The notes: generated by a model not told the origin, from the letters alone. A stretch of 32,000 nt of DNA from an uncultured Geitlerinema sp. (GCA_964477525.1 CAYZHY010000014.1:9501-41500), one strand, 5' to 3'. Counted from the stretch's first letter, positions 7,346 to 21,296 are shown. A program made the numbers and translations.

Positions 7346-8422
7346 CTACCGAGAAGTGCCCACGGCTTCTTGGGAAGGAGAAGAAGCCACCACTTCCGAG
7401 GAGCGACCTTCCCAAAGTTGGGCAATCTTGCTGAAATCAACCCCAGCAGCGCGCAAAGCATGCCAGAGGTGACCTTGCAGGAAGAAAAAGGCAAGGAAAA
7501 AGTGAGCGTTAGCCAGCCAAGCACGAGGTGTATACGTTCCTGGTTCCAACTGTGCCGTATCTGCAAAATACGGGACAAAACTAACCTGCAATTCCAACGT
7601 GGGACCGTAAAATTCTGTGGGATAAGCCAGGGTATTGAAAGCGCAGAAAGCAGTCGCAACGAATCCTGCCAAGGCAATACCGCCCAACGAGTAAGACAAA
7701 ATGGCTTCTCCCGAGAAATTCAGCAAGCGTTTTGCCCAAGCAAAAGGTTCCTGCACGATGTGCCAAATTCCGCCTGCCAACAGCAAAATGGCAACGTAGA
7801 TATGACCGCCGACCAAATCCTCTAGATTATCAATCCAGAGAAAATCGGTTTGATAGCTGTAAATCACCCAAGGATTGAGGGTAGGATTGGTCACCTGACG
7901 CACCTCACCCAAATTGGGGTCGTAGAGACCACCACCAGCAGTAGCGTGGAAAACAAAGAGCAATGCACCCAATCCCAGAAAAATCAAATGGATACCGAGA
8001 ATCGACCCCAGTTTTTTCGGGTCGTTCCACTCAAAATGGAATTTGGCAGCGCCACCGGAAGCCTGTTTCAAATCGCTGGGAACGCGAACTTGGTGGAAGA
8101 AAGCACCCAATCCCAACACGCCAGAAGAAATCAGATGGACTACGCCTACCACATAAAAGGGATAGGTATCGATCGCTTCTGGACCTTCTGTCATTCCCAA
8201 GCCTAAAGCCGCCAAATGGGGCAACAGAATCAACCCCTGTTCGTACATGGGGGCTGCTGGGTTATACTGGGAGAGTTCGAAGAGGGTAAACGCACCTGCC
8301 CAAAACACAATCAGGGCAGCGTGGGCAATGTGGGCGGTGAGAAACGTACCGGATAAATTAGCCAGCCGGGCGTTTCCCGCCCACCATCCATATCGGACTT
8401 GAGAGTTTCCGTAAGTTTGCAT
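7346..8422 (-). CDS. isiA: IsiA/CP43'-family chlorophyll-binding antenna protein (third gene of cluster)
   Basis: 358 aa. N-terminus [20 protein letters not shown]...[16 protein letters not shown] and six-helix CP43-like blocks without the large lumenal loop. GAGGAGG SD lies 5 nt upstream of the ATG. Confidence 0.88.
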
Positions 8423-8442
8423 AAATGCCTCCTCAATGCAAG

Positions 8443-9843
8443 TTAGTTAATCGTGCCGCGAAAGATAGCGTCGATGGTTTCAAAGTTTTGCAAGAGAAAG
8501 TAAGCGACCCAAGCGCCGCCAACGCCACCAATCAGGAAGCTAGCGCGAAATTGGTTCCAATCTTGTTGGTTTTGCAGCCAGTAGAAGATGGTGCCTTCCC
8601 GGCAAGCAGCGAGAACGACGGTTACGATGGCGATAATGGCTACAGCCGCTAGCAAAGCCGTTTGGCGCGCCCAACTGGGTTCGGAAAGCGGACTGAGGGT
8701 GACAAACGGACCCACCAGGAAATAACCGTGGGCCATACCAATTTCCAGTCCGCGCCACATAGGCGATAAACCGCGACGGTAAACGGGCAAATTGGCCAAA
8801 AATATCAGCGTTGCTTCGCCGGAACCAGTAGCATTGGAAGCAAAGACACCGCGACGCATATCAAAGCCACCAGTACGCGATCGCACTCTGACCGCATGCC
8901 AGATGTGCCCCACCAACAGCAGCGCTGCCAAAACCACATGGGTAGTTGCCAGCCAAGTACGGGGCGTGACCGCACCATTGGCGGTTTCCGACCAACCCAA
9001 AGGTCCGTAAAACTCTACTGGATAAGCCAAATCATTGGTGGTGACAAAATAAGCCGCCAAAAATCCAGCATAGGCCAAAGCCCCCAGGCTGTAGGACAAA
9101 TAAGCTTCGCCGGACCAATACAGCACATCTCGCGCCCACTTGTAAGGCTTCGAGACCACGTGCCAAATGCCACCGACGACACACAAAAGTCCGACCCAGA
9201 TATGGCCGCCAACCAGATCTTCCAAGTTATCCACGGCAGCCATCCCTTCTGGACCTTGCACTCCTACCAGATAGCCGAAAATGCGGATGGGATTTAACGT
9301 CGGGTCGCTGACAGCGCGAACGGACTGGATATTGGCATCGTACAAACCACCAGCGTAGGTTGCCTTAAACGCCAGCAGCAACGCTCCCAGTCCCAGTAAA
9401 ATCAAGTGAATGCCCAAAATGGAGGTCATTTTGTCTTGGTCTTGCCAGTCGTAACCGAAAAAGCCAGGAATCGACTTCTCTTGCGGCAAAACCTCCGGAC
9501 CTAACAGAGCGTGGTAAACACCACCAGCTGCCAAAACGGCGGAACTCACCAAATGTAGGACCCCCACAACCAAATAGGGATAGGTATCCACAATTTGTCC
9601 GCCATCAGCAACGCCCCATCCCAACGTTGCCAAATGCGGCAGCAGAATCAGTCCTTGTTCGTATAAAGGTTCGCCGGGATGGTAACGAGAAAGTTCGAAG
9701 AGGGTAAACGCGCCTGCCCAGAAAACGATTAAGGCTGCTTGCGCCACGTGCGCTCCCAGCAATCTTCCGGAAAGGTTCGTCAAACGCGCATTGCCTGCCC
9801 ACCAACCGTAGGCTCGTTCTGGAACCGTGGTTGTTGCCGTCAT
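8443..9843 (-). CDS. CP43'/IsiA-family chlorophyll-binding protein with C-terminal PsaL-like domain
   Basis: Start trimmed to [21 protein letters not shown] (ATG 9843-9841), which overlaps the upstream gene's TGA as ATGA. The last ~132 aa (nt 8446-8841) match PsaL blocks: [30 protein letters not shown] and [25 protein letters not shown]. Confidence 0.88.
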
Positions 9844-10829
9844 AGCTTCGTGCCTCCTAATGCCTGCATGCGAGCGCGAATGGCGTGCCAAATATGGCCG
9901 GCTAAGAAAACAGCCGCCAAAGCTATATGGGCTGTCGCCAGCCAAGTGCGTGCGGTTACCGTACCGGATGCCTCTTGCAAGCCGACGGGGCCGTAAAAGA
10001 CTTCTGGATAGGCAAAGTCGTTGACAGTAACGAAATAAGCTGCCAAAACACCCATATAAGCCAAAGCGCCCAAACTATAGGAAAGATACGCTTCCCCGGA
10101 CCACACGAACAGACGTTTGGCCCAACCAAAGGGTTTGCTGGCGATATGCCATAAGCCGCCAACAACGCAGAGAAAGCCGATCCAAGCGTGACCGCCAACG
10201 AGGTCTTCTAGGTTGTGGACCGCTGCCATACCGGCGGTGCCTTGACTGCCCACCAGATAGCCGAAAATCCGAGCTGGGTTGAAGGTGGGTTGGGTGACCA
10301 CCCGTACTGCTTCTGCATTGGGGTCGTACAAACCGCCCCAAAACATGGCTTTGGTGACCAGCAACCAAGCACCCAGTCCCAGCAAAACTAGGTGAATGCC
10401 CAGAATGGTGGTCATTTTGTTGGTATCCTGCCAGCTGTAGCCGAAAAAGCCAGCAAAGGTATCGTCTCGCGACAGTACCCGCGGACCGAAAACGGCGTGG
10501 TAAATGCCACCAGCGCCCAAGACGGCAGAACCAACTAGATGCAAAATGCCAATGACGAAGAAGGGATAGGTATCTGCAATTTCTCCGCCGTCAGCAACAC
10601 CCAATCCTAGGGTGGCTAGATGCGGCAGCAGAATCAATCCTTGTTCGTACATGGGTTGTGCTGGGTTGTATTGGGCGAGTTCGAAGAGGGTAAAGGAACC
10701 TGCCCAAAAGGTGATTAAACCGCTGTGTGCGACGTGCGCGCCCAACAGTTTGCCCGATAAATCTGTAAAGCGAGCGTTCCCTGCCCACCAACCGTAGTTG
10801 GATTGCGAAGGTAACGTGGTTGTACTCAT
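9840..10829 (-). CDS. CP43'/IsiA-family chlorophyll-binding protein (first gene of cluster)
   Basis: Start trimmed to [21 protein letters not shown] (ATG 10829-10827), preceded by GAGGAGG. 329 aa. Closest by eye to the N-terminal part of the fusion gene ([31 protein letters not shown]). Confidence 0.88.
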
Positions 10830-10857
10830 GGATGAGGACCTCCTCAACGGTGGCTCA

Positions 10858-10880
10858 TTGTTGAAAAAAATATTCAACAA
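10858..10880. promoter_or_regulatory. perfect palindrome TTGTTGAA-N7-TTCAACAA in the leader of the IsiA-like operon
   Basis: Read directly. 8-bp arms with a 7-nt A/T spacer, 29-51 nt upstream of the first ATG. Could be an operator or a 5'-UTR hairpin. Confidence 0.3.
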
Positions 10881-10928
10881 CCTTGGGTATCCATTCAAAC
10901 TTTATTGGCAAAAATTTGCAAGTGGTTT

Positions 10929-11173: not shown

Positions 11174-11824
11174 CTAGGATTCGGCAATGCTAGGAAAATG
11201 CTTTTTGACAATCATACGCCGCTGCTGGTCAAAACTGAGAATGCCTTGGTCTTGGAATTTGCCCATCAGGCGAGTGATGGTAACGCGGCTGGTACTGATG
11301 GCGTTGGCGAGTTCTTGGTGGGTGAGGCGAATGCCAATTCGGATGCCTTGGGGGGTGGTTTCTCCCATTTCCTGTTGCAGCCATTGCAGCAGTTGTTGCA
11401 AACGTGTTTCAACACGACGTTGCCCCGCGATCGCTAACAATGCCTCGACTTGCTGCAGTCGCCGGTTGATTTGCGGCAGGAGTTGCTGCGCTAGAGTCGG
11501 TGAAGATTCGATGTCGGTCATGGAATACCAAGTTAAATAGACATCTGACTGAGCTTTGACTTGATAGGTGGGTAAGGAGGTCAACCAAGATCCAAAACAC
11601 AAATTAGGACCAACCCAACCAACCAAGCCTTCGTTTCCATTTAAATAAAATGTACTTACCTGCACGTATCCCTCACAAACCTGCCAGATGCCGCAATGCT
11701 TGCTGGTGATGGGTTGCCCCTTGCGATAAAAAAAACAGCGGGTTTTGGTCAAGCGATCGCGAAGCGTCGGGGAACGAGAGTCGCGGTGCTGGGTTGCTTG
11801 CCATAGCGATGTGGTGGCGCTCAT
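11174..11824 (-). CDS. Crp/Fnr-family transcriptional regulator
   Basis: 216 aa. N-terminal beta-roll effector-like region and C-terminal HTH LTHQELANAISTSRVTITRLMGKFQDQGIL. GAGGAG lies 10 nt upstream of the ATG. Confidence 0.82.
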   Translation of the reverse strand: MSATTSLWQATQHRDSRSPTLRDRLTKTRCFFYRKGQPITSKHCGIWQVCEGYVQVSTFYLNGNEGLVGWVGPNLCFGSWLTSLPTYQVKAQSDVYLTWYSMTDIESSPTLAQQLLPQINRRLQQVEALLAIAGQRRVETRLQQLLQWLQQEMGETTPQGIRIGIRLTHQELANAISTSRVTITRLMGKFQDQGILSFDQQRRMIVKKHFPSIAES

Positions 11825-12105: not shown

Positions 12106-12124
12106 GATAGAGATAATCATTATC
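12106..12124. promoter_or_regulatory. Fur box (17/19 match to GATAATGATAATCATTATC)
   Basis: GATAGAGATAATCATTATC read directly. It is embedded in a larger inverted repeat, TAATATGATA (12100-12109) / TATCATATTA (12121-12130). Confidence 0.6.
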
Positions 12125-12370
12125 ATATTAATTCGTTCGGAGTTGGTTGGCAAGGGTAAATAGCGATCGCCGTTGTGGATTTCGTATCGTGGTTGACAAA
12201 GCCAGCTTGGATCGTACAAAGTACAAAAAAGTAACGCTCTGTAGGCGTTGGCAAATCCCCCCATAACTGTAGTCAATTCTACATTCAAAATTAAAAAAGA
12301 CCCCAGCAGGTAAATAAGTAGAATTACTTAATATGTTAGATTGAGCCCACCTTTCCAATGACTGGTAGCT

Positions 12371-12408
12371 GCGATGGTGCCTTGGGCACCGGTCCTTCGG
12401 ACCATCGC
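12371..12408 (+). other. compact two-hairpin RNA structure in the long leader (terminator or attenuator candidate)
   Basis: Closing stem GCGAT...ATCGC enclosing GTGCC-TTG-GGCAC and GGTCC-TTC-GGACC, followed by GTTTCATTCT. About 135 nt upstream of the 12543 ATG. Confidence 0.35.
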
Positions 12409-12542
12409 GTTTCATTCTATAATCGTTTGCCCGTTATATAACCAATTGAACAACTTTACGTACGAACAATTGATAAATCTTGCCAGCCAACGCCATCGGA
12501 ATACTTCTCCATTCCGTTGTTGTTAATTTCCGTTGACCCAAA

Positions 12543-15191
12543 ATGCCTGATACCTCCATTCCTCTCTATCCCGAACCTGCCAAAGTTCCCTCCGAACCCT
12601 ACGAATACCTAGAGTACGAAAACTGGCTTGCCTTTCACCGGGTTTGGGGCAAAATGAACGACGATACCATAAATGCGATCGCCCGTCACCTACAAGTTTT
12701 GCCCATCCCTGCCCACACCCCTATTTATCAAGAAAACCAAACCCCCCAAGGCATTTATTTTCTCAAATGGGGAACCGTGGAAATTTACCGCCAATCCCCC
12801 GTGGGTAAAAGCCACATCACCTATCGCAACGCCGGAGAAGTCTTTGGCTATTTGCCCCTGGTAAGCAACCAATGGCAGCATAAATATCAAGCCAATGCGA
12901 TCGCACTCACCAGTAGCGAAGTTTGGTTTCTCCATCGGGATACCCTCCAAACCCTCACCCAACAATATCCCGACCTACAGCAAGCCATTACCAGCCTATT
13001 AGTACAAGATTTAGAGCGATTTACCGAACGAATCGCCAGCGAACAAGCCAGAATCCAGGGATTGCAACCTTACCTGCAACCCCTGCCCCACCAAGAACGC
13101 ATCGTTGGTTCTAGCAAACCCAGCCAAAAACTCGCCAAATCCGTCGAAACCGCCAGTCAAGACCAAAAACCCATTGTTTTCCAAGCCCAACGCGGTACCG
13201 GCAAAACCTTTATCGCCGGCTTAATCCACCAAAAATCTTCCCTGCAAAACCAACCCTTCGCCGAAATTGACTGCGCCACCCTGGTTCGCGAAGCAGGAGG
13301 TACCATCAACAGCGATCGCATTTTTGGCAGCGGCGAACACACCATTGGTATCCTAGAACTAGTCGAACGCGGCACCCTCGCCATCGACAACGTGCATTTG
13401 CTCAGCAAATCCGACCGCGAACGGCTATTTGAATACCTAAAAACCGGCACCATCTACCGCAACCATGCCACCACCCCGCGACAAATCTCCGTTCGCCTGA
13501 TTCTGATAGCCCCGCAAAAACTAGATCTCCCCGATATCGACCACCACACCATCAAACTCCCGCCCCTCACACAACGCAAAGCCGATATTGGCGAATTTGC
13601 CCGTCACTTCCTCCGTAAGTTTTGCCAAGAAAGCGATCGCCCCTTCCTCGAACTCGACCAAGCCGACCTGCGGCGCTTAATTAGCTACAACTACCCCGGC
13701 AACATCGCCGAACTCGCCGCCATCCTCGAACGCGCCGTCGCCATGACCCCAAGCGGGCAAACCGTCATCCCCGAACAAGTCTTGTGGTCGGTAGAATCCC
13801 AGAAAAACAGCTTTCGCATCGACCTACTCAACTTTATCCCCGGCTTGCGCAAATTCCTCCTCAGCGACTGGTGGCCCCAGCGTACCTGGATTTTGATGAT
13901 GCTTGTCTTTGTTCCCGTCACCCTTATGGGCTTCATCGGACCGCAAGAGCGCGGCGAGAGCATCACTTTACACTTATTTTGGGCGTGGTGGTGGCCTTTT
14001 TACTTACTCTTATTTCCCATTTTAGGGCGTTTGTGGTGTTCCGTATGTCCATTTATGATAACTGCTGAATGGTTGCGCAACCTTTCCTTGTGGATATTCC
14101 CCCGTTCCCTGAAACCCTGGAACACCAAAGCCTTAAATCGTTGGGGCGCTTGGTGGCTTTGGGCAGGATTCGTCGCCATTTACATCTGGGAAAAACTCTG
14201 GGATTTGCCCCACAGCGCCTACCTCTCCGCCTGGCTGTTAATGATTATCACCGGCGGTGCCATTATCTTTAGCCTAATTTACGAACGTCGCCTGTGGTGC
14301 CGCTACCTGTGCCCCATCGGCGGCATGAACGGGTTATTTGCCAAACTCTCCGTTGTGGAATTGCGATCGACCCAACAAGTGTGTGGCAGTCAGTGCAGTA
14401 CCTTTGGCTGCTACAAAGGCAGCGATGCCACCCCGGTGAACTTTTCCGATCCTTTGCCCACCGAAGGGCAAGCCACCGGCGGCTGCCCCCTCTATTCCCA
14501 TCCCGCGCAATTAAAAGACAATCGCGATTGCATGTTCTGCATGACCTGTTTGAAAGCCTGCCCCAATCGTTCCGTACAGCTAAACCTACGCTTTCCCGCC
14601 GCCGATATTCTAGAAAATCACCAGCCGTTTTGGGCAGAAGTGGCGTTGCTGGTGCTATTGCTGGGTGGCGTTTTCATGCACCAAGGCAATAAATTTCTCA
14701 GTTGGTTTGGTTGGGGCGATATTCCCTTGGATTCGGAACATTTGCTGGTTTCTTTGCCAGTGGTATCCCTGCTGTTAAGTATTCCCTTTGTGTTAACCTA
14801 TGGAATCCACCAACTGACGCGCTTGTGGATGCGTTTGGTCTTTCCTAGCGGGCAACAGACATTTCCCGAGTATCTTCAGGTTATTTATGCCTATTTGCCT
14901 CTCACCCTGGGTGCCAATTTGGCATACTATATCCCCACCGCGATTACCGAGTCGGGAACGCTTTTGCCCACATTGGCGCGTACGGCTGGCTTTAGCGGTG
15001 GGATGCTGCCGACACTAACCTGGAGTTTGGATGTAGCCAATTTTTTGCAAGGTGTAGTGCTGTTGTGGTCTTTTGGGTTTAGCGTTTATCTGCTATCGGG
15101 GATTACCAAGCGGTTTGTGAAAGCCAATCTTCCCCATATTTTGTTGATGTTGGGGTTGACGGTGGTTTTCTTTCCGTTGATGGTCCTGTAA
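12543..15191 (+). CDS. fusion protein: cNMP-binding domain + degenerate sigma54-interaction (NtrC-type AAA+) domain + membrane polyferredoxin (NapH/NosR-like 4Fe-4S) domain
   Basis: 882 aa. cNMP/CRP-like beta-roll at about aa 45-150. AAA+ module at aa 186-405 (IVGSS.., Walker A RGTGKT, GTLAIDNV, PPLTQRKADIGEFARHFL, YPGNIAELAAILERA). At least 6 hydrophobic helices follow. Cys motifs: CSVCPF, CRYLCPIGG, CGSQCSTFGC, CMFCMTCLKACP. Confidence 0.82.
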   Translation: MPDTSIPLYPEPAKVPSEPYEYLEYENWLAFHRVWGKMNDDTINAIARHLQVLPIPAHTPIYQENQTPQGIYFLKWGTVEIYRQSPVGKSHITYRNAGEVFGYLPLVSNQWQHKYQANAIALTSSEVWFLHRDTLQTLTQQYPDLQQAITSLLVQDLERFTERIASEQARIQGLQPYLQPLPHQERIVGSSKPSQKLAKSVETASQDQKPIVFQAQRGTGKTFIAGLIHQKSSLQNQPFAEIDCATLVREAGGTINSDRIFGSGEHTIGILELVERGTLAIDNVHLLSKSDRERLFEYLKTGTIYRNHATTPRQISVRLILIAPQKLDLPDIDHHTIKLPPLTQRKADIGEFARHFLRKFCQESDRPFLELDQADLRRLISYNYPGNIAELAAILERAVAMTPSGQTVIPEQVLWSVESQKNSFRIDLLNFIPGLRKFLLSDWWPQRTWILMMLVFVPVTLMGFIGPQERGESITLHLFWAWWWPFYLLLFPILGRLWCSVCPFMITAEWLRNLSLWIFPRSLKPWNTKALNRWGAWWLWAGFVAIYIWEKLWDLPHSAYLSAWLLMIITGGAIIFSLIYERRLWCRYLCPIGGMNGLFAKLSVVELRSTQQVCGSQCSTFGCYKGSDATPVNFSDPLPTEGQATGGCPLYSHPAQLKDNRDCMFCMTCLKACPNRSVQLNLRFPAADILENHQPFWAEVALLVLLLGGVFMHQGNKFLSWFGWGDIPLDSEHLLVSLPVVSLLLSIPFVLTYGIHQLTRLWMRLVFPSGQQTFPEYLQVIYAYLPLTLGANLAYYIPTAITESGTLLPTLARTAGFSGGMLPTLTWSLDVANFLQGVVLLWSFGFSVYLLSGITKRFVKANLPHILLMLGLTVVFFPLMVL

Positions 15192-15229: not shown

Positions 15230-16192
15230 ATGCAAATTTACAACAATATTACCGAAATTATCGGGCGTACGCCCCTGGTTCGCCTCAACAAATTGCCCCA
15301 ACAGTACGATTGCGTGGCGGAAATTGTACTGAAGCTGGAAAGTTTCAATCCGGCGAAGTCAGTGAAAGACCGTATTGCGATTAGTATGGTTGCGGAAGCG
15401 GAACGCAGTGGGTTAATCGAACCGGGCAAATCCACGATTGTTGAGTCTACTTCCGGCAATACGGGGATTGGTTTGGCGATGGTTTGTGCGGCGAAGGGAT
15501 ATCGCACGATTTTGACGATGCCGGAGAATATGAGTCGGGAACGCATGCAGCTGTTGCAAGCCTATGGGGCGGAAATTGATACGACGCCGGCGAAGTTAGA
15601 TATAGCAGGAGCGATCGCGCGGGCTAACGAACTTTTGGCAACGATTCCCAATTCGTTTTCTCCCCAACAGTTTAGCAATCCCGCCAATCCCAAAATTCAC
15701 TATACCACAACGGGGGTGGAACTTTGGCAGGATACCGATGGCGATTTGGATGCTGTGGTATTGGGTGTGGGCACTGGCGGTACGCTAACGGGGGCAGGAC
15801 GTTATTTGAAACAGAAAAAAAACGATTTGCAATTAATTGCAGTGGAACCGGCGTTGAGTCCGGTTTTGAGCGGCGGTTGTTCCCAGATCCACAATTTACA
15901 GGGGATTGGCGCTGGGTTTGTTCCCGATGTTTTGCGGGTGGATTTGATTGATGAAATTGTTACCGTCAGTGAAGAGCAAGCCTATAAAGTAGGGCGAGAA
16001 CTGGCTAAAGAGGAAGGAATCCTAAGTGGCATTTCTACGGGGGCAGCCGTCTACGCTGCTTTGCAATTAGCACAGAAAGCCAAATGGACGGGAAAACGGC
16101 TGGTGGTTATTCAACCTAGTGGCGGCGAACGGTATTTGAGTACTCCCTTGTTTGCGGAAACCAGCGAAAATGCAGAAATTCCGGTTTCTTAG
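15230..16192 (+). CDS. cysK: cysteine synthase A (O-acetylserine sulfhydrylase)
   Basis: 320 aa. PLP-lysine block NPAKSVKDR, TSGNTG loop and GVGTGGTLTG phosphate-binding loop. Confidence 0.88.
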   Translation: MQIYNNITEIIGRTPLVRLNKLPQQYDCVAEIVLKLESFNPAKSVKDRIAISMVAEAERSGLIEPGKSTIVESTSGNTGIGLAMVCAAKGYRTILTMPENMSRERMQLLQAYGAEIDTTPAKLDIAGAIARANELLATIPNSFSPQQFSNPANPKIHYTTTGVELWQDTDGDLDAVVLGVGTGGTLTGAGRYLKQKKNDLQLIAVEPALSPVLSGGCSQIHNLQGIGAGFVPDVLRVDLIDEIVTVSEEQAYKVGRELAKEEGILSGISTGAAVYAALQLAQKAKWTGKRLVVIQPSGGERYLSTPLFAETSENAEIPVS

Positions 16193-17115: not shown

Positions 17116-17633
17116 TTACTTCTCTACTTTCCCCTCCTCGATCGCACGAGTTGGTAAATAGCTAGCGGCGATCGCAACACACAACCACCATACCGTATTA
17201 ATCTGCGGACGATACCACACTGTATCCACCAAACCATGTACCATCAATCCTACCATAGCCGCCAGCGTTGCCATCAGCCAATATCCCTGGGGATTGCTAC
17301 GATCGCGTAGGGCACAGACTTGCCGCCAGCCACTGGCAAAACTCACCAGCAGAAACCACAAAAACGATGCCAAACCGATAAATCCAGTTTCCACAGCCAC
17401 TTCTAAAAATACCGAATAGGCACTCAAGGCACTGTAGTTGGGACGCATGTAGAGGGGATATACTTGGTTAAAAGCATCGTTGCCCGGTCCTATTCCTAGG
17501 ATAGGGCGATCGCGTATCATATCGATAACTGCCGCCCACACATTCATGCGGAAATTGTTGCTGCTGTCTTCACGACCCGCAAAAATACTCATAGCGCGAT
17601 CGCGAATGGGGTCTACAAATAACACTGCTAGCA
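17116..17633 (-). pseudogene. duplicated 3' fragment of ictB (left copy, lacks the 5' ~900 nt)
   Basis: Encodes the C-terminal ~169 aa of the 19887..21296 protein. Amino acids are identical except the last residue (K vs T). The rest of the 254-aa track ORF is read-through, antisense to the methyltransferase. Confidence 0.85.
17126..17633. repeat. 508-bp direct repeat, left copy
   Basis: Compared line by line with 19897-20404 (offset 2771). No mismatch was seen by eye. Confidence 0.9.
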
Positions 17634-17693
17634 ATGATATAATCTTTATCCCTGACCTCAACAAAAATATCCGAACTGGATAGAGTTCATAGT

Positions 17694-19031
17694 ATGAACG
17701 TAAGACCAATCGTAATCGACCTTTTTTCTGGAGCAGGTGGCTTAAGTTTAGGTTTTGAGCAAGCTGGATTTGATGTGGTGGCTGCAGTTGAAATAGATCC
17801 AATCCATGCCGCCATCCATAAATATAATTTTCCATATGGCATTGTTCTACCAACTTCCGTAATCTATCTGAGCGCAACAACGATTCGCGAACAGGCAGGA
17901 ATAGGAGATGACGAAATCAATGTGGTGGTTGGTGGTCCTCCTTGTCAGGGATTTTCGCTTATTGGAAAAAGGTCTCTTGACGATCCTAGAAATAGATTGG
18001 TTCGTGAATTCGTTCGCCTAGTCGAAGAGTTATCGCCACAATTCTTTCTTTTTGAAAACGTAAAGGGGTTAACTGTTGGCAAACATCGTCAAGTTCTAGA
18101 GGAATTGGTAGAACAATTTCATGGGATTGGATATAACGTGCAAATGCCTTGGCAAGTGCTTAATGCTATGAATTACAGAGTGCCACAAGATCGCGAGCGA
18201 TTGTTTCTTCTTGGTGCCAGGCAGGGAATATCAATGCCTTCCTATCCTTCTCCTATCACAGAGCCTTTATCTTCGTTGGACTTAGAAATTCCTGGCTTAC
18301 TTGCTAAAACTCCTACATGCAAAGATGCGTTGGGAGATTTGCCCGACGCAGAATTGTTTGAAGAGCTAAAAGACAGTGATGCTGTACATACAAATAAATG
18401 GGGAATCCCTTCTGATTATGGTAAAGAAATGAGATGCATCAGCGAAAAAGCGTGGCATTTTGGCTATCCCCGAAAATGGGAACCAAATTTACTTACATCA
18501 AGTGCCAGAACAAATCATACAAATATATCACGTAGAAGATTTTCTCAAACCCAACCAGGAAGCGTAGAACCTGTATCGCGCTTTTTCAAGCTGTCGCCAG
18601 AGGGAATTTCAAATACCCTTCGCGCTGGAACTGATTCAGCACGCGGTGCCTTTACAAGTCCAAGACCAATCCATTACGAGAAAAATAGATGTATAACGGT
18701 TCGGGAAATGGCTCGTTTGCATGGTTTTCCGGATTGGTTTCGTTTTCATACGACAAAATGGCATGGTGCTAGACAAATAGGAAATGCTGTTCCTCCACCC
18801 CTGGCAAGAGCGATCGCTGCGGAATTTATTAGAGCTGCTGGTATTGAGGTATTGAAACCAAAAGAATTAATACAGTTTGGCGAACGTGCATTACTGGAAA
18901 TGGATATGACGGAAGCAGCTAATTTTTGGGGGATAGATGTGCCTGTTGCCAAACGAGATCGTAAGAGTGGTGCGAAAAAACGGAAACAAGAAGAAATCGA
19001 AGCATTACATATTGGAGAAATGGAAATTTAG
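17694..19031 (+). CDS. DNA (cytosine-5)-methyltransferase
   Basis: 445 aa. Motif I DLFSGAGG, motif IV GGPPCQGFS, motif VI FENV, motif VIII QDRERLF, motif IX TVREMARLHGFPDWF, motif X GNAVPPPLA. A long variable (TRD) region lies between motifs VIII and IX. Confidence 0.92.
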   Translation: MNVRPIVIDLFSGAGGLSLGFEQAGFDVVAAVEIDPIHAAIHKYNFPYGIVLPTSVIYLSATTIREQAGIGDDEINVVVGGPPCQGFSLIGKRSLDDPRNRLVREFVRLVEELSPQFFLFENVKGLTVGKHRQVLEELVEQFHGIGYNVQMPWQVLNAMNYRVPQDRERLFLLGARQGISMPSYPSPITEPLSSLDLEIPGLLAKTPTCKDALGDLPDAELFEELKDSDAVHTNKWGIPSDYGKEMRCISEKAWHFGYPRKWEPNLLTSSARTNHTNISRRRFSQTQPGSVEPVSRFFKLSPEGISNTLRAGTDSARGAFTSPRPIHYEKNRCITVREMARLHGFPDWFRFHTTKWHGARQIGNAVPPPLARAIAAEFIRAAGIEVLKPKELIQFGERALLEMDMTEAANFWGIDVPVAKRDRKSGAKKRKQEEIEALHIGEMEI

Positions 19032-19035
19032 AAAA

Positions 19036-19845
19036 ATGGATAAGAAGTCAGATAACAATCCCCAGAGCCGATATATGGCTTTAATTGAAAAAGTATTCTT
19101 TGACCGTTACCAAACAGGTGACAGCAGGATAGAGTTTGCACGTGAAGACCTTGTTAGGGCAGCAAACGAACTTGATATTAAATTACCCAAGAATCTTGGA
19201 GATGTGGTGTATTCTATACGATACCGCACACCGATGCCGAATAGTATCTTGCAAATAAAGCCAGAGGGAATGGAATGGATTATTGAAGGCGCAGGTCGCT
19301 CAAAATATGTTTTCAAGTTGGTTCACATTAACAGAATTGTTCCGAACCAAGAACTTGTAGCTATTAAAATTCCAGATTCAACACCTGAAATTGTTAATGC
19401 ATATTCCTTGTCTGACGAGCAAGCGTTACTCGCAATTGTTAGATACAATCGTTTAATCGATATTTTTCTTGGCTTAACTGCATATTCTCTACAAAACCAT
19501 CTCAGAACCACGGTATCGTCAATTGGTCAAGTTGAAATAGATGAAATTTATGTAGCTGTTGATAAGCACGGCAGGCAGTTTGTTTTGCCCGTACAAGCTA
19601 AGGGAGGGAGCGATCGACTTTCTGTTGTTCAAACAAAACAAGATATTGCTTGTTGTGCAGAGAAATATCCCAATCTTATTTGTAGAGCTATATCTGCTCA
19701 ATTTGTGGAAAATAAATTAATTGCATTATTTGAGCTTACAATTGAAAACGATGAAGTGAAAATAGTAAACGAAAGACACTATAACCTAGTTCCATCCGAT
19801 TGGATCGACGATAACGATCTAAAAACCTATTCGCAACGTTCGTAA
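19036..19845 (+). CDS. putative restriction endonuclease partner (uncharacterised; possible PD-(D/E)xK-like core)
   Basis: Start trimmed to the ATG at 19036, 4 nt after the methyltransferase stop. 269 aa. Candidate nuclease core EIDEIYVAVDKHGRQFVLPVQAKGG (D..QxK). I do not recognise the family. Confidence 0.5.
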   Translation: MDKKSDNNPQSRYMALIEKVFFDRYQTGDSRIEFAREDLVRAANELDIKLPKNLGDVVYSIRYRTPMPNSILQIKPEGMEWIIEGAGRSKYVFKLVHINRIVPNQELVAIKIPDSTPEIVNAYSLSDEQALLAIVRYNRLIDIFLGLTAYSLQNHLRTTVSSIGQVEIDEIYVAVDKHGRQFVLPVQAKGGSDRLSVVQTKQDIACCAEKYPNLICRAISAQFVENKLIALFELTIENDEVKIVNERHYNLVPSDWIDDNDLKTYSQRS

Positions 19846-19886
19846 TCTAAAGATATCTATAGAGTAGTAACTGCTAGCCAGTTGCC

Positions 19887-21296
19887 CTATGTCTCCACTT
19901 TCCCCTCCTCGATCGCACGAGTTGGTAAATAGCTAGCGGCGATCGCAACACACAACCACCATACCGTATTAATCTGCGGACGATACCACACTGTATCCAC
20001 CAAACCATGTACCATCAATCCTACCATAGCCGCCAGCGTTGCCATCAGCCAATATCCCTGGGGATTGCTACGATCGCGTAGGGCACAGACTTGCCGCCAG
20101 CCACTGGCAAAACTCACCAGCAGAAACCACAAAAACGATGCCAAACCGATAAATCCAGTTTCCACAGCCACTTCTAAAAATACCGAATAGGCACTCAAGG
20201 CACTGTAGTTGGGACGCATGTAGAGGGGATATACTTGGTTAAAAGCATCGTTGCCCGGTCCTATTCCTAGGATAGGGCGATCGCGTATCATATCGATAAC
20301 TGCCGCCCACACATTCATGCGGAAATTGTTGCTGCTGTCTTCACGACCCGCAAAAATACTCATAGCGCGATCGCGAATGGGGTCTACAAATAACACTGCT
20401 AGCACCACCACCGCTGCACTAGCCCCCAAAACACCTGGTATTGTCCATATTCGCCACTTTTGCGGCAGTTTGGGGGTCCACCAATAGACCAACATCAGCA
20501 CAAACACAAAGCCAGCCGCCAAAAAGCCAATCCAACCACCACGACTGTAGGTAAGAACCAAACACACCGAGTTGGTAACAAACATCCCCACCGCCAACGC
20601 CTTGCAAGTGATGCGACGCCAGGCAAAAATCGCCCCCATACTGAACGCTACCGCCGGAATCAAATAGCCAGCCAGCAAGTTGGGATTTCCCAGAAAGCTA
20701 TAAACCCTGGTAATTTCGGCAGTTGCCGATTTTGGATCGGTCCAAGTTGCTAGGGGGTCTGCCCCAAAGTACCACTGACGAATGCCATAGGCACTAACAA
20801 TCAGCGAAATATGCAAGTAAACGCCTACAAACGCATCTTGGACTCTTCTGCCAATGCGCGATCGCAATAACTTAGCCGCCAAAGCAAACAGCAACAGGTA
20901 CAAAGTCAGCTCAACCCATCCCGTAAACGCTGCTTCCCGCACCGGTGACAGCGCCATCGCTACGGTAGAAATGGCCCAGTACAGCAAGACCAGCAAATGA
21001 ATTGGCGTTAGAATCGCTTGGGGGGATCGCCAGTCTTCCGTAACCGTCAGCATCGCCCACAATCCGGCACAGGCAATTAACAAAACACCAATGAGTGAGG
21101 TAGGCACAAACGGTCCCACCACAAAAACCAAACTCACCAGCAACGCGCCCAAGGGTTCTGCCCACTGCATCAGCCAGCTACCCTGACGCCAAGCAGCCAG
21201 CGGACCATTTGTCAAGCGAAACAAGATGCTTTGACGCTGCCATTGCTGGAAGGGAATTTGGGATAGGGTCAGTGGTTGCCAAACAGAACGTACCAT
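19887..21296 (-). CDS. ictB: IctB-family membrane protein (O-antigen-ligase-like; putative inorganic-carbon-related transporter)
   Basis: 469 aa, polytopic. Blocks recalled from Synechococcus IctB: VYSFLGNPNLLAGYL, LTYSRGGW, SIFAGREDSSNNFRMNVW, ILGIGPGNDAFNQVYPLY, ALSAYSVFLEVAVETG, HGLVDTVWYRP. Confidence 0.82.
   Translation of the reverse strand: MVRSVWQPLTLSQIPFQQWQRQSILFRLTNGPLAAWRQGSWLMQWAEPLGALLVSLVFVVGPFVPTSLIGVLLIACAGLWAMLTVTEDWRSPQAILTPIHLLVLLYWAISTVAMALSPVREAAFTGWVELTLYLLLFALAAKLLRSRIGRRVQDAFVGVYLHISLIVSAYGIRQWYFGADPLATWTDPKSATAEITRVYSFLGNPNLLAGYLIPAVAFSMGAIFAWRRITCKALAVGMFVTNSVCLVLTYSRGGWIGFLAAGFVFVLMLVYWWTPKLPQKWRIWTIPGVLGASAAVVVLAVLFVDPIRDRAMSIFAGREDSSNNFRMNVWAAVIDMIRDRPILGIGPGNDAFNQVYPLYMRPNYSALSAYSVFLEVAVETGFIGLASFLWFLLVSFASGWRQVCALRDRSNPQGYWLMATLAAMVGLMVHGLVDTVWYRPQINTVWWLCVAIAASYLPTRAIEEGKVET
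19897..20404. repeat. 508-bp direct repeat, right copy (within intact ictB)
   Basis: Identical by eye to 17126-17633. Confidence 0.9.

Follow-up and report, generated by a model that had tools for sequence, protein, structure and literature searches.

Sigma54-type activators are ATP-driven remodellers of one target, the sigma54-RNA polymerase, and include the bacterial enhancer-binding proteins NtrC1, PspF, NifA and ZraR (PF00158). A few genuine sigma54-dependent members of this group lack the C-terminal helix-turn-helix (HTH), and the same AAA+ clade contains VpsR, Brucella NtrX, TyrR and Rhodobacter NtrC/HupR, in which the GAFTGA motif is lost or altered and which work independently of sigma54. 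When Walker B is mutated by design in PspF or NtrC1, the protein can still bind ATP and assemble, with no turnover. To our knowledge, eukaryotes have no sigma54. Both sigma54 and its activators have been reported absent from cyanobacteria (PMC3162934). Here, we describe an open reading frame (ORF) of 882 residues in a 32,000-nucleotide stretch of DNA from an uncultured Geitlerinema sp. (GCA_964477525.1 CAYZHY010000014.1:9501-41500; hereafter the window), whose product joins a degenerate AAA+ domain of this clade to a membrane domain with predicted iron-sulfur (Fe-S) clusters. Our preferred reading, held with moderate confidence, is that the product is a membrane Fe-S redox protein with a NapH/NosR-like output, gated by a ligand, independent of sigma54 and tied to the handling of sulfur or cysteine.

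Two further groups of described systems are needed for the comparison. NtcA, CooA and FNR have effector domains of the CRP/FNR type whose ligand is not cAMP, and CcoG is a membrane polyferredoxin of NapH's broad class with two [4Fe-4S] clusters. In NapH itself, a membrane module carries out quinol oxidation and the CX3CP motifs are functionally required; the protein has four transmembrane (TM) helices, two cytoplasmic CX3CP motifs and two C-terminal cytoplasmic [4Fe-4S] motifs (PMC5928378). NosR, from a related group, was once annotated as a 'regulator' before a role in electron transfer was proposed (PMC5928378).

The ORF occupies 12543-15191 on the plus strand, to which all coordinates within it refer, and is the sole long ORF of that stretch, with no internal stop over its 882 residues. 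Its product begins with a cyclic nucleotide-binding (cNMP)-type beta-roll at residues 55-142 (12705-12968; Pfam cNMP_binding at 56.5 bits against a cutoff of 27.5, and structural alignments with the CRP family), which leads through a long helix predicted in the AlphaFold model (residues 143-177; 12969-13073) into a degenerate sigma54-activator-type AAA+ core and lid (residues 187-326 and 344-412; 13101-13778; Pfam, phmmer against the PDB, and Foldseek). A nine-helix membrane domain follows, into which a cytoplasmic Fe-S domain is inserted. Pfam reports Sigma54_activat over residues 187-326 (59.9 bits, cutoff 20.2), AAA_lid_14 over residues 344-412, two Fer4_5 stretches and a weak Fer4 at residues 659-675. 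It finds no DNA-binding HTH in the ORF, residues 443-882 being the membrane domain instead. The NCBIfam matches to NifA, DhaR, PspF, NtrC and others are partial and all far under their own cutoffs, and the same library gives a weak NapH/MauN match at residues 493-680. An AlphaFold model built on 25 relatives has a mean pLDDT of 72, rising above 85 across most of the AAA+ part. Since relatives from 80 genomic loci align over nearly the whole length, the ORF is not a frameshifted fusion. The preliminary description of this locus, made from the DNA alone, had proposed a single gene that fuses cNMP-type, AAA+ and membrane polyferredoxin parts and carries a membrane domain where an HTH would be expected; Pfam, the alignments and the models bear this out, the continuous frame and full-length relatives speak for one gene rather than two or three, and every motif it named sits at the residue it gave, in the translation and in the alignments.

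The architecture is not peculiar to this genome. A protein search with the ORF returned 397 matches at E ≤ 1e-10, of which the best 120, the ones described in detail, are all full-length at 59-98% identity and, where named, nearly all cyanobacterial. Scanning one genome per species yielded at least 571 confirmed relatives, and the best 80 of these loci, which we used to define clades and compare neighbours, fall into two cyanobacterial paralog clades: clade 1, at 54-73% identity and including the ORF, and clade 2, at 37-41%. Both occur together in several genomes. When 1.84 billion cluster representatives were searched exhaustively with a profile, 319 proteins were recovered at E ≤ 1e-30, about 100 of them full-length proteins of the same architecture at 26-41% identity; in a sample of these distant members Pfam detects cNMP, AAA+, lid and Fer4_5. 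The N-terminal input varies across the family (cNMP, cNMP plus GAF, FHA plus cNMP, or REC plus HisKA in place of cNMP), while the AAA+ plus membrane domain is constant. Named distant bacterial members come from metagenome-assembled genomes (MAGs) labelled Chloroflexi and Thermodesulfobacteriota. Two genes that fall within clade 1, each about 62% identical to the ORF, come from MAGs labelled Actinomycetota (L006) and Rhizobium sp. Q54 (L012), the latter also with cysK and cyanobacterial-type neighbours; both are probably cyanobacterial contigs binned into the wrong MAG.

The family extends into eukaryotes, with members at 38-41% identity in Trebouxia, Edaphochlamys debaryana, Ostreococcus tauri, Picocystis salinarum and Symbiodinium natans. 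These clusters (P0127, P0128, P0129, P0130 and P0139) lie on large nuclear scaffolds of green algae and a dinoflagellate, those of Trebouxia measuring 2.7-4.4 Mb, and their proteins retain the AAA+ core (missed by Pfam in two), the Fer4_5 stretches and the lid. The algal members group with clade 2 in an approximate tree built by neighbour joining, and clades 1 and 2 together with the algae split from the other bacteria. Because the algal homologues group with a cyanobacterial clade, the tree suggests that the algal copies were transferred from the plastid ancestor.

The AAA+ part is where the kinship with enhancer-binding proteins, and the departure from them, are clearest. In phmmer searches of the PDB it matches PspF and NtrC1 at about 1e-20, and its model superposes on both with a TM-score of 0.78-0.81 and a root-mean-square deviation of about 2.7 Å in Foldseek, the best matches including the receiver-plus-AAA+ NtrC1 structures 1ny5 and 4l4u over 290-295 columns. 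With the 59.9-bit Pfam match, this gives the sigma54-interaction fold proposed earlier the support of profiles. VpsR and NtrX also appear among the structural and sequence matches, and Walker B mutants of PspF and NtrC1 are among the closest structural matches in Foldseek. The ORF product shares with enhancer-binding proteins the fold of the AAA+ subfamily, the lid and the order of motifs, including the landmarks ELFG before the L1 loop, GTL before Walker B, PPLRxR and PGNxxEL; like NtrC1, it joins an N-terminal sensor domain to the AAA+ through a long helix. Unlike them, it has no HTH and is missing the GAFTGA loop, the Glu of Walker B and the arginines of the fingers and of sensor II; it has a nine-helix membrane Fe-S domain for a DNA-binding domain, and belongs to lineages without sigma54. 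It differs equally from VpsR, NtrX, TyrR and NtrC/HupR, which are soluble DNA-binding transcription factors, whereas the ORF product is an integral membrane protein with no DNA-binding domain.

Alignment to PspF and NtrC1, together with the columns of the family alignments, locates these losses. The Walker A P-loop is kept as AQRGTGKT (A215-T222; 13185-13208), and its G218, G220, K221 and T222, the GxGKT signature, are invariant in 25/25 clade-1 sequences. At the GAFTGA position lies an L1 loop that reads FGSGEHTIG (residues 261-269; 13323-13349), the residues aligned to GAFTGA itself being DRIFGS; clade 1 keeps LFG alone here (consensus LFGR), so that only F261 and G262 of the ORF loop are conserved. 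The Walker B Asp-Glu is replaced by D282-N283 (13386-13391). Among the 25 clade-1 sequences the Asp varies (D, E, S, N, T, A or C) and the catalytic Glu is Asn, or His in one, and never Glu; in a further alignment, column 530, a column not mapped residue by residue, is a nearly invariant Asn. The FRxDLxxRL segment that holds the Arg fingers (R162 and R168 in PspF) is deleted in the ORF and is a variable insert across clade 1. The preliminary description had made these same four points by eye, namely a retained Walker A, DN for DE, a substituted GAFTGA and an absent finger segment, and the alignment upholds them all. To them can be added one that it lacked: the sensor II Arg (PspF R227) corresponds to A389 within PGNIAEL (13707-13709), a position occupied in clade 1 by A, T, G, S or V and by Arg in 0/25.

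The same losses recur far beyond clade 1. Clade 2 is more degenerate, with a Walker A of GEPGL[GE]KDN and NN at Walker B. Many of the roughly 100 distant members retain an activator-like GExGTGKE, their Walker B is mostly xN and never has Glu, GAFTGA is replaced by GAF[SP]FA or by unrelated loops, and the finger arginines are not conserved. No Glu stands at the Walker B catalytic position in any aligned member, be it the 25 clade-1 sequences, clade 2 or the roughly 100 distant proteins. As the losses are found across clade 1, clade 2 and distant members, the alignments indicate that the disappearance of the hydrolysis and sigma54-contact residues is ancient and common to the whole architecture, not recent decay. 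Because the P-loop is intact in clade 1, the AAA+ domain of the ORF probably still binds nucleotide; it probably neither hydrolyses nucleotide nor contacts sigma54. The suggestion of sigma54 independence made at the outset is strengthened by the missing Glu among aligned members and by the presence of members on algal and dinoflagellate nuclear scaffolds. The window, 32 kb of the genome, has no rpoN-like gene among its annotated ORFs.

The beta-roll has also lost residues, in this case those through which cyclic nucleotides are usually held. Its phosphate-binding cassette is non-canonical in the ORF, with FGY for GEL and Y115-Q116-A117 for R-[ST]-A. The position of the ribose-contact Glu is Tyr or His in 24/25 aligned relatives and Cys in the other (Glu in 0/25), and the phosphate-contact Arg, Gln in the ORF, is Arg in 4/25. 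The clade-1 cassette can be written FG[YH]...Y[QRNHY][TAS], clade 2 has lost the cassette, and distant, non-cyanobacterial relatives retain the canonical FGE...R[ST]A. With the contact residues gone from most cyanobacterial members, the cyanobacterial domain is probably a cNMP-type fold that has lost the usual mode of cAMP or cGMP binding; a cyclic-nucleotide input appears plausible for the ancestors of the family and doubtful for the ORF protein, and the earlier proposal that the protein couples a cyclic-nucleotide signal is thus not sustained. The roll resembles the CRP/FNR-type effector domains with other ligands, which share a cNMP-type beta-roll followed by a long helix and have the cyclic-phosphate contacts replaced, the difference being that the rolls of the NtcA, CooA and FNR type lead into an HTH and that of the ORF into an AAA+ domain.

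The membrane half was modelled separately (residues 436-882, 47 sequences), giving a pLDDT of 85, a pTM of 0.87 and nine TM helices. The first four, at about residues 446-465, 474-501, 528-552 and 559-579 (13869-14342), are supported by the model, by Fer4_5 and by the weak NapH match. They are followed by the cytoplasmic Fe-S domain at residues 604-690 (14352-14612), recognised by its motifs, the weak Fer4 match and Cys conservation and modelled with low confidence in the apo form, and then by five further predicted helices at residues 697-713, 731-766, 777-814, 829-855 and 859-880 (14631-15185). The motifs of the NapH/NosR and ferredoxin types named in the preliminary description are where it placed them: CSVCPF at 499-504 (C499-x2-C502-P), CRYLCP at 586-591 (C586-x3-C590-P), CGSQCSTFGC at 614-623 and CMFCMTCLKACP at 663-674. 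In the Fe-S domain, C614, C618, C623 and C648-P together with C663, C666, C669 and C673-P spell CxxxCxxxxC...CP plus CxxCxxCxxxCP, the pattern of a predicted 2x[4Fe-4S] ferredoxin. Across 101 diverse full-length members, each of the 12 Cys is kept in 100-101, those of the CxxCP and CxxxCP motifs in 101/101, and no region of the protein is more constrained than this Fe-S and Cys part. Invariant residues are nearly absent from the last five helices, which belong to no Pfam family and find no fold match in the PDB. Haem binding by these helices was considered and rejected, as the clade-1-conserved H713, H756 and H865 are not kept across the wider family. The N-terminal half should lie in the cytoplasm since it has no signal sequence, and this, with the distribution of positive charge, suggests that both Cys-pair motifs and the domain at residues 604-690 would likewise face the cytoplasm, as published for NapH (PMC5928378).

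The features shared with NapH/MauN are four TM helices, two Cys-x-x(-x)-Cys-Pro motifs and two cluster motifs after the fourth helix. Relative to NapH, the first motif of the ORF product is CxxCP and one cluster is of the form CxxxCxxxxC...CP, and the ORF product adds an N-terminal regulatory half of 430 residues and, at the C terminus, five helices. A search of NCBIfam with only the membrane half gives NapH as the best family (36.2 bits against a cutoff of 234 for PRK09477 and 33.1 against 213 for TIGR02163), followed by a trace of NosR (20 bits against 1000). NosR, NirI and RdhC (PceC) share the membrane module with CX3CP, and NosR has two clusters as well; NosR and RdhC carry a periplasmic FMN-binding domain that the ORF product does not have, and the match is very weak. 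The parts of the protein are well known, and their combination sits in databases under borrowed names; the ORF product is neither a sigma54 activator nor NapH proper.

The gene that follows points towards sulfur. Thirty-eight bp past the ORF stop and on the same strand lies cysK, encoding cysteine synthase A (15230-16192, +; TIGR01139 at 429.7 bits against a cutoff of 350.95), and no terminator-like or promoter-like site was found in the gap. A cysK-like gene lies directly downstream on the same strand in 21/44 clade-1 loci and 0/37 clade-2 loci (Fisher p=2e-7), with gaps mostly of -16 to +107 bp among the positive clade-1 loci, which come from Coleofasciculus, Limnospira, Spirulina, Lyngbya, Nodosilinea, Pseudanabaena, Cyanobium, Nostoc, Laspinema, Oscillatoria and Leptolyngbya. 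It also follows the ORF homologue in all three close relatives (L085-L087). The ORF and cysK are probably co-transcribed in clade 1.

Other genes of sulfur and quinone chemistry recur nearby. Among the 44 clade-1 loci, an MBL-fold/rhodanese fusion resembling persulfide dioxygenase lies near the family gene in seven, a gene for a Tll0287-like haem protein in five, and an SQR-like flavoprotein, a PetC Rieske paralog and cytochrome bd (cydAB) in four each; further recurrent neighbours are a YgaP-type membrane protein, HdrB- and HdrC-like proteins and an ArsR regulator. At least one such sulfur or redox neighbour is present in 27/44 clade-1 and 1/37 clade-2 loci. L050, the nearest relative at species level (73%), has these genes in the order PetC, one without annotation, an MBL fragment, the ORF homologue, cysK and an SQR-like gene. 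Outside cyanobacteria the neighbours vary, yet are again related to redox or sulfur: one member has a TauE-family gene two genes downstream, another locus a ferredoxin-nitroreductase and a Tll0287-like gene, and a third NrfA/NrfH-type cytochromes, a Tll0287-HisKA kinase and a tandem paralog of the family gene. In Synechococcus 7002, pdo, rhod, tauE and cysK2 are induced by polysulfide (PMC12466478). As an observation in its own right, Tll0287-like genes of the haem-c PAS type were seen near members at L009, L017, L025, L035 and L038, at L081 17075-17803 and at L089 1096-2682, with the domain fused to a histidine kinase in one case.

Taken together, these features can be arranged into a mechanism. 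The N-terminal half would be a regulatory unit inherited from a protein of the sigma54-activator type, in which the beta-roll and long helix feed the AAA+ domain. With Asn at the catalytic position and an intact P-loop, the AAA+ domain may bind ATP and assemble without turnover, and would then serve as a ligand- or nucleotide-dependent switch of assembly and conformation, gating the membrane redox domain in the manner of a naturally occurring 'Walker B trap'. The four-helix Cys module, by analogy with NapH, would exchange electrons between the (plasto)quinone pool and the cytoplasmic clusters. We infer that the membrane Fe-S domain is the output and occupies the place that the DNA-binding domain has in activators; it is taken as the constant output because the input domains swap while the AAA+ and membrane domains stay joined. 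A role in the handling of sulfide or sulfane sulfur, or in cysteine supply, is proposed because of the probable co-transcription with cysK and the neighbouring sulfide, persulfide and quinone genes. Nucleotide binding without hydrolysis, coupling to quinone, the cofactor content and the role in sulfur metabolism are all predictions for the ORF product, drawn from motifs, models and gene neighbourhoods. A broader formulation, which we offer only tentatively, is that the family constitutes a new class of membrane redox protein, ranging from cyanobacteria to algae, in which a non-hydrolysing AAA+ switch gates electron flow between plastoquinone and Fe-S clusters, with CysK, in clade 1, linking photosynthetic or respiratory electron transport to sulfide and cysteine metabolism.

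Several observations weigh against the gated redox protein. No experiments on any family member were found in the literature. The NapH match is far under its cutoffs (33-36 bits against 213-234), the first Cys motif is spaced CxxCP rather than CX3CP, and neither nap or nos partner genes in general nor NapG, NapF or mau partner genes in particular are present in the window or the related loci examined. The P-loop is degenerate in clade 2 and many distant members, which implies that nucleotide binding is not essential across the family. The cysK gene adjoins about half of the clade-1 loci and no clade-2 locus (0/37), so that sulfur handling may be specific to a clade and not the core function, and each of the other sulfur or redox neighbours is found in only 3-7 of the 44 clade-1 loci. 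The neighbours on the other side of the ORF in the window are iron-stress genes and a Fur box. Information, finally, may run either way, from the sensor to the redox domain or with the redox domain itself as the sensor.

The last of these points leads to the main rival, that the protein is a sensor of redox state or sulfur and not an enzyme: the membrane Fe-S/Cys domain would respond to reactive sulfur species, or to how reduced the quinone pool is, and signal to the pseudo-AAA+ domain, which would bind or release a soluble partner such as CysK or a membrane-held transcription factor. There is precedent in RdhC and NosR, both initially taken for regulators, and partner enzymes need CX3CP and Fe-S motifs of the NosR type to stay active (PMC5928378). 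The conservation of a non-catalytic AAA+ domain would suit a protein-binding scaffold, the five C-terminal helices are poorly conserved, and genes for Tll0287-like haem sensors recur near members in cyanobacteria and other bacteria. The swappable N-terminal domains (cNMP, GAF, REC and FHA) already look like inputs, however, and a membrane domain that was also an input would leave the protein with no recognisable output; the invariance of the eight cluster-type Cys and of the other four is explained no less well by a chain for electron transfer. We regard a pure sensor as possible, though unlikely, and retain the gated redox protein as the preferred reading.

The upstream side of the ORF gives rise to a different proposal, advanced in the preliminary description, in which the gene is controlled by Fur together with IsiA-like genes and its product is an iron or redox signalling device that couples a cyclic-nucleotide signal to the membrane Fe-S domain. 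The context on which it rests is present as described. The 718-bp divergent intergenic region holds a Fur-box-like palindrome, GATAGAGATAATCATTATC (12106-12124), with 2 mismatches in 19 and an expectation of 0.01 by chance, which is the only such match in the window and is conserved, with most of the spacer, in a metagenomic relative at 98% identity (L087). Divergently transcribed is a Crp-family regulator (11174-11824, minus strand; best against the PtrA model, at 164 bits under a cutoff of 300), followed by three tandem genes for IsiA/CP43'-type antenna proteins (7346-10898, minus strand; library matches), the middle one (8443-9945) fused to a PsaL domain. Each isiA-like gene carries one full-length Rfam match to the IsrR antisense RNA on the plus strand (7852-8029, 9270-9447 and 10256-10433; 104-133 bits). 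A protein needing about eight Fe would, moreover, be a sensible target of iron control.

Conservation does not follow, and the inference of an iron/redox device is left unsupported. The crp or isiA-like neighbours are shared by 0/80 related genome loci, with the crp gene recurring in the 98% relative, and in relatives at 83% and 85% a 119-residue gene, which has left no trace in the window, lies upstream in place of the crp and isiA-like genes. The Fur box lies 419 bp 5' of the ORF ATG and nearer, at 282 bp 5', to the start of the divergent crp-like gene, with promoter-like hexamers overlapping it on both strands. The cyclic-nucleotide contacts that this proposal would use are, as described above, gone from most cyanobacterial members. 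We therefore consider an iron-signalling device improbable. For the Crp-family regulator itself, a role in sulfur metabolism is as conceivable as one in iron metabolism, since the Limnospira gene for the Crp/Fnr regulator cbsR lies ahead of a cluster of cysK2-cysE1-srpI-sufS2 (PMC8400943). Within the spacer at 12130-12420, comparison with L087 shows a 42-bp hairpin (12369-12410) in the window only and a 35-bp indel by GCGATCGC (HIP1) sites present in L087 only; the hairpin is thus an insertion missing from the 98% relative. A separately transcribed small RNA or gene under Fur control might lie between the Fur box and the ORF; Rfam gives no match there, and the 119-residue gene of the 83% and 85% relatives is missing from the window.

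Less probable still is a metal reductase of the CcoG/FixG type, that is, a membrane polyferredoxin reducing Cu(II) or Fe(III) under the control of the N-terminal domains. The iron-stress context of the window would suit such an enzyme, and CcoG belongs to the same broad class as NapH, but the membrane half has no CcoG/FixG match at E ≤ 0.01, NapH and NosR being the sole polyferredoxin families matched, Pfam finds no FixG_C-type periplasmic domain in the ORF, and the conserved neighbours are sulfur and quinone genes, not genes for copper or cbb3 oxidase. On the missing family match, identity as a CcoG-type reductase was rejected. Finally, an assembly or frameshift artefact of two or three genes, or a genuine sigma54-dependent activator, is refuted despite database names such as 'sigma 54-interacting transcriptional regulator' and the rpoN genes listed for two cyanobacteria in PMC12316311, given that the family as a whole lacks a DNA-binding domain, the GAFTGA loop, the Glu of Walker B and the arginines of the fingers and of sensor II, that the frame runs unbroken and relatives at the best 80 genomic loci align along almost all of it, and that the family persists in eukaryotic algae; the ORF product is not a transcription activator.

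Those database names deserve attention in their own right. Members are also called 'cyclic nucleotide-binding domain-containing protein', '4Fe-4S binding protein' and, at NCBI, 'RNA polymerase subunit sigma-54' and, on a Tolypothrix member, 'nitrogen assimilation regulatory protein'. This amounts to systematic misannotation as sigma54-dependent or nitrogen regulators, and with such labels cyanobacteria can wrongly be credited with sigma54 systems. In a survey from 2025, rpoN genes are given for two strains, Gloeocapsa PCC 7428 and Leptolyngbya O-77 (PMC12316311). Because family members bear the 'RNA polymerase subunit sigma-54' label at NCBI, these two exceptions may be misannotated members of the present family.

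The preliminary description knew of no characterised counterpart, and none was found in the searchable literature, nor was anything relevant found on this architecture or on sulfide clusters that mention it. Expression and knockout data exist for a single locus tag, Synechocystis slr1529 ('ntrX', 'nitrogen assimilation regulatory protein'), which may be a member and shares its name with the Tolypothrix one; no Synechocystis protein is among the matches listed in either family search. What has been published on this gene bears on the family only if that assumption, or orthology, holds. Its mRNA falls under iron deprivation (PMC3516471), whereas repression by Fur would make it rise, so that on this condition the iron-signalling reading would be weakened; it is repressed by copper excess (PMC4182526), which on the same condition would suit a metal reductase; and its knockout is viable with altered metabolites.

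What distinguishes the family is that a sigma54-activator domain has long been retained without its catalytic and contact residues, joined to an Fe-S membrane domain resembling NapH; cyanobacterial species with such a protein number in the hundreds. Should the switch model prove true, it would represent a second, non-transcriptional use of this AAA+ clade and an unstudied, regulated point of electron entry or exit at the photosynthetic or respiratory quinone pool, probably linked to sulfide and cysteine handling.

The window is cyanobacterial, and elsewhere carries an NDH-1 subunit gene and IctB-like genes. An IctB/Wzy_C-type gene (19887-21296, minus strand) and a fragment whose match to IctB is confined to the last 170 residues (17116-17880, minus strand) flank a cytosine-5 DNA methylase (17694-19031, plus strand) and an ORF of 302 residues with no family match, and the GC content falls to 0.41 across 17116-21296. 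This segment has the look of a restriction-modification cassette that was inserted here, accompanied by duplication of part of a gene.

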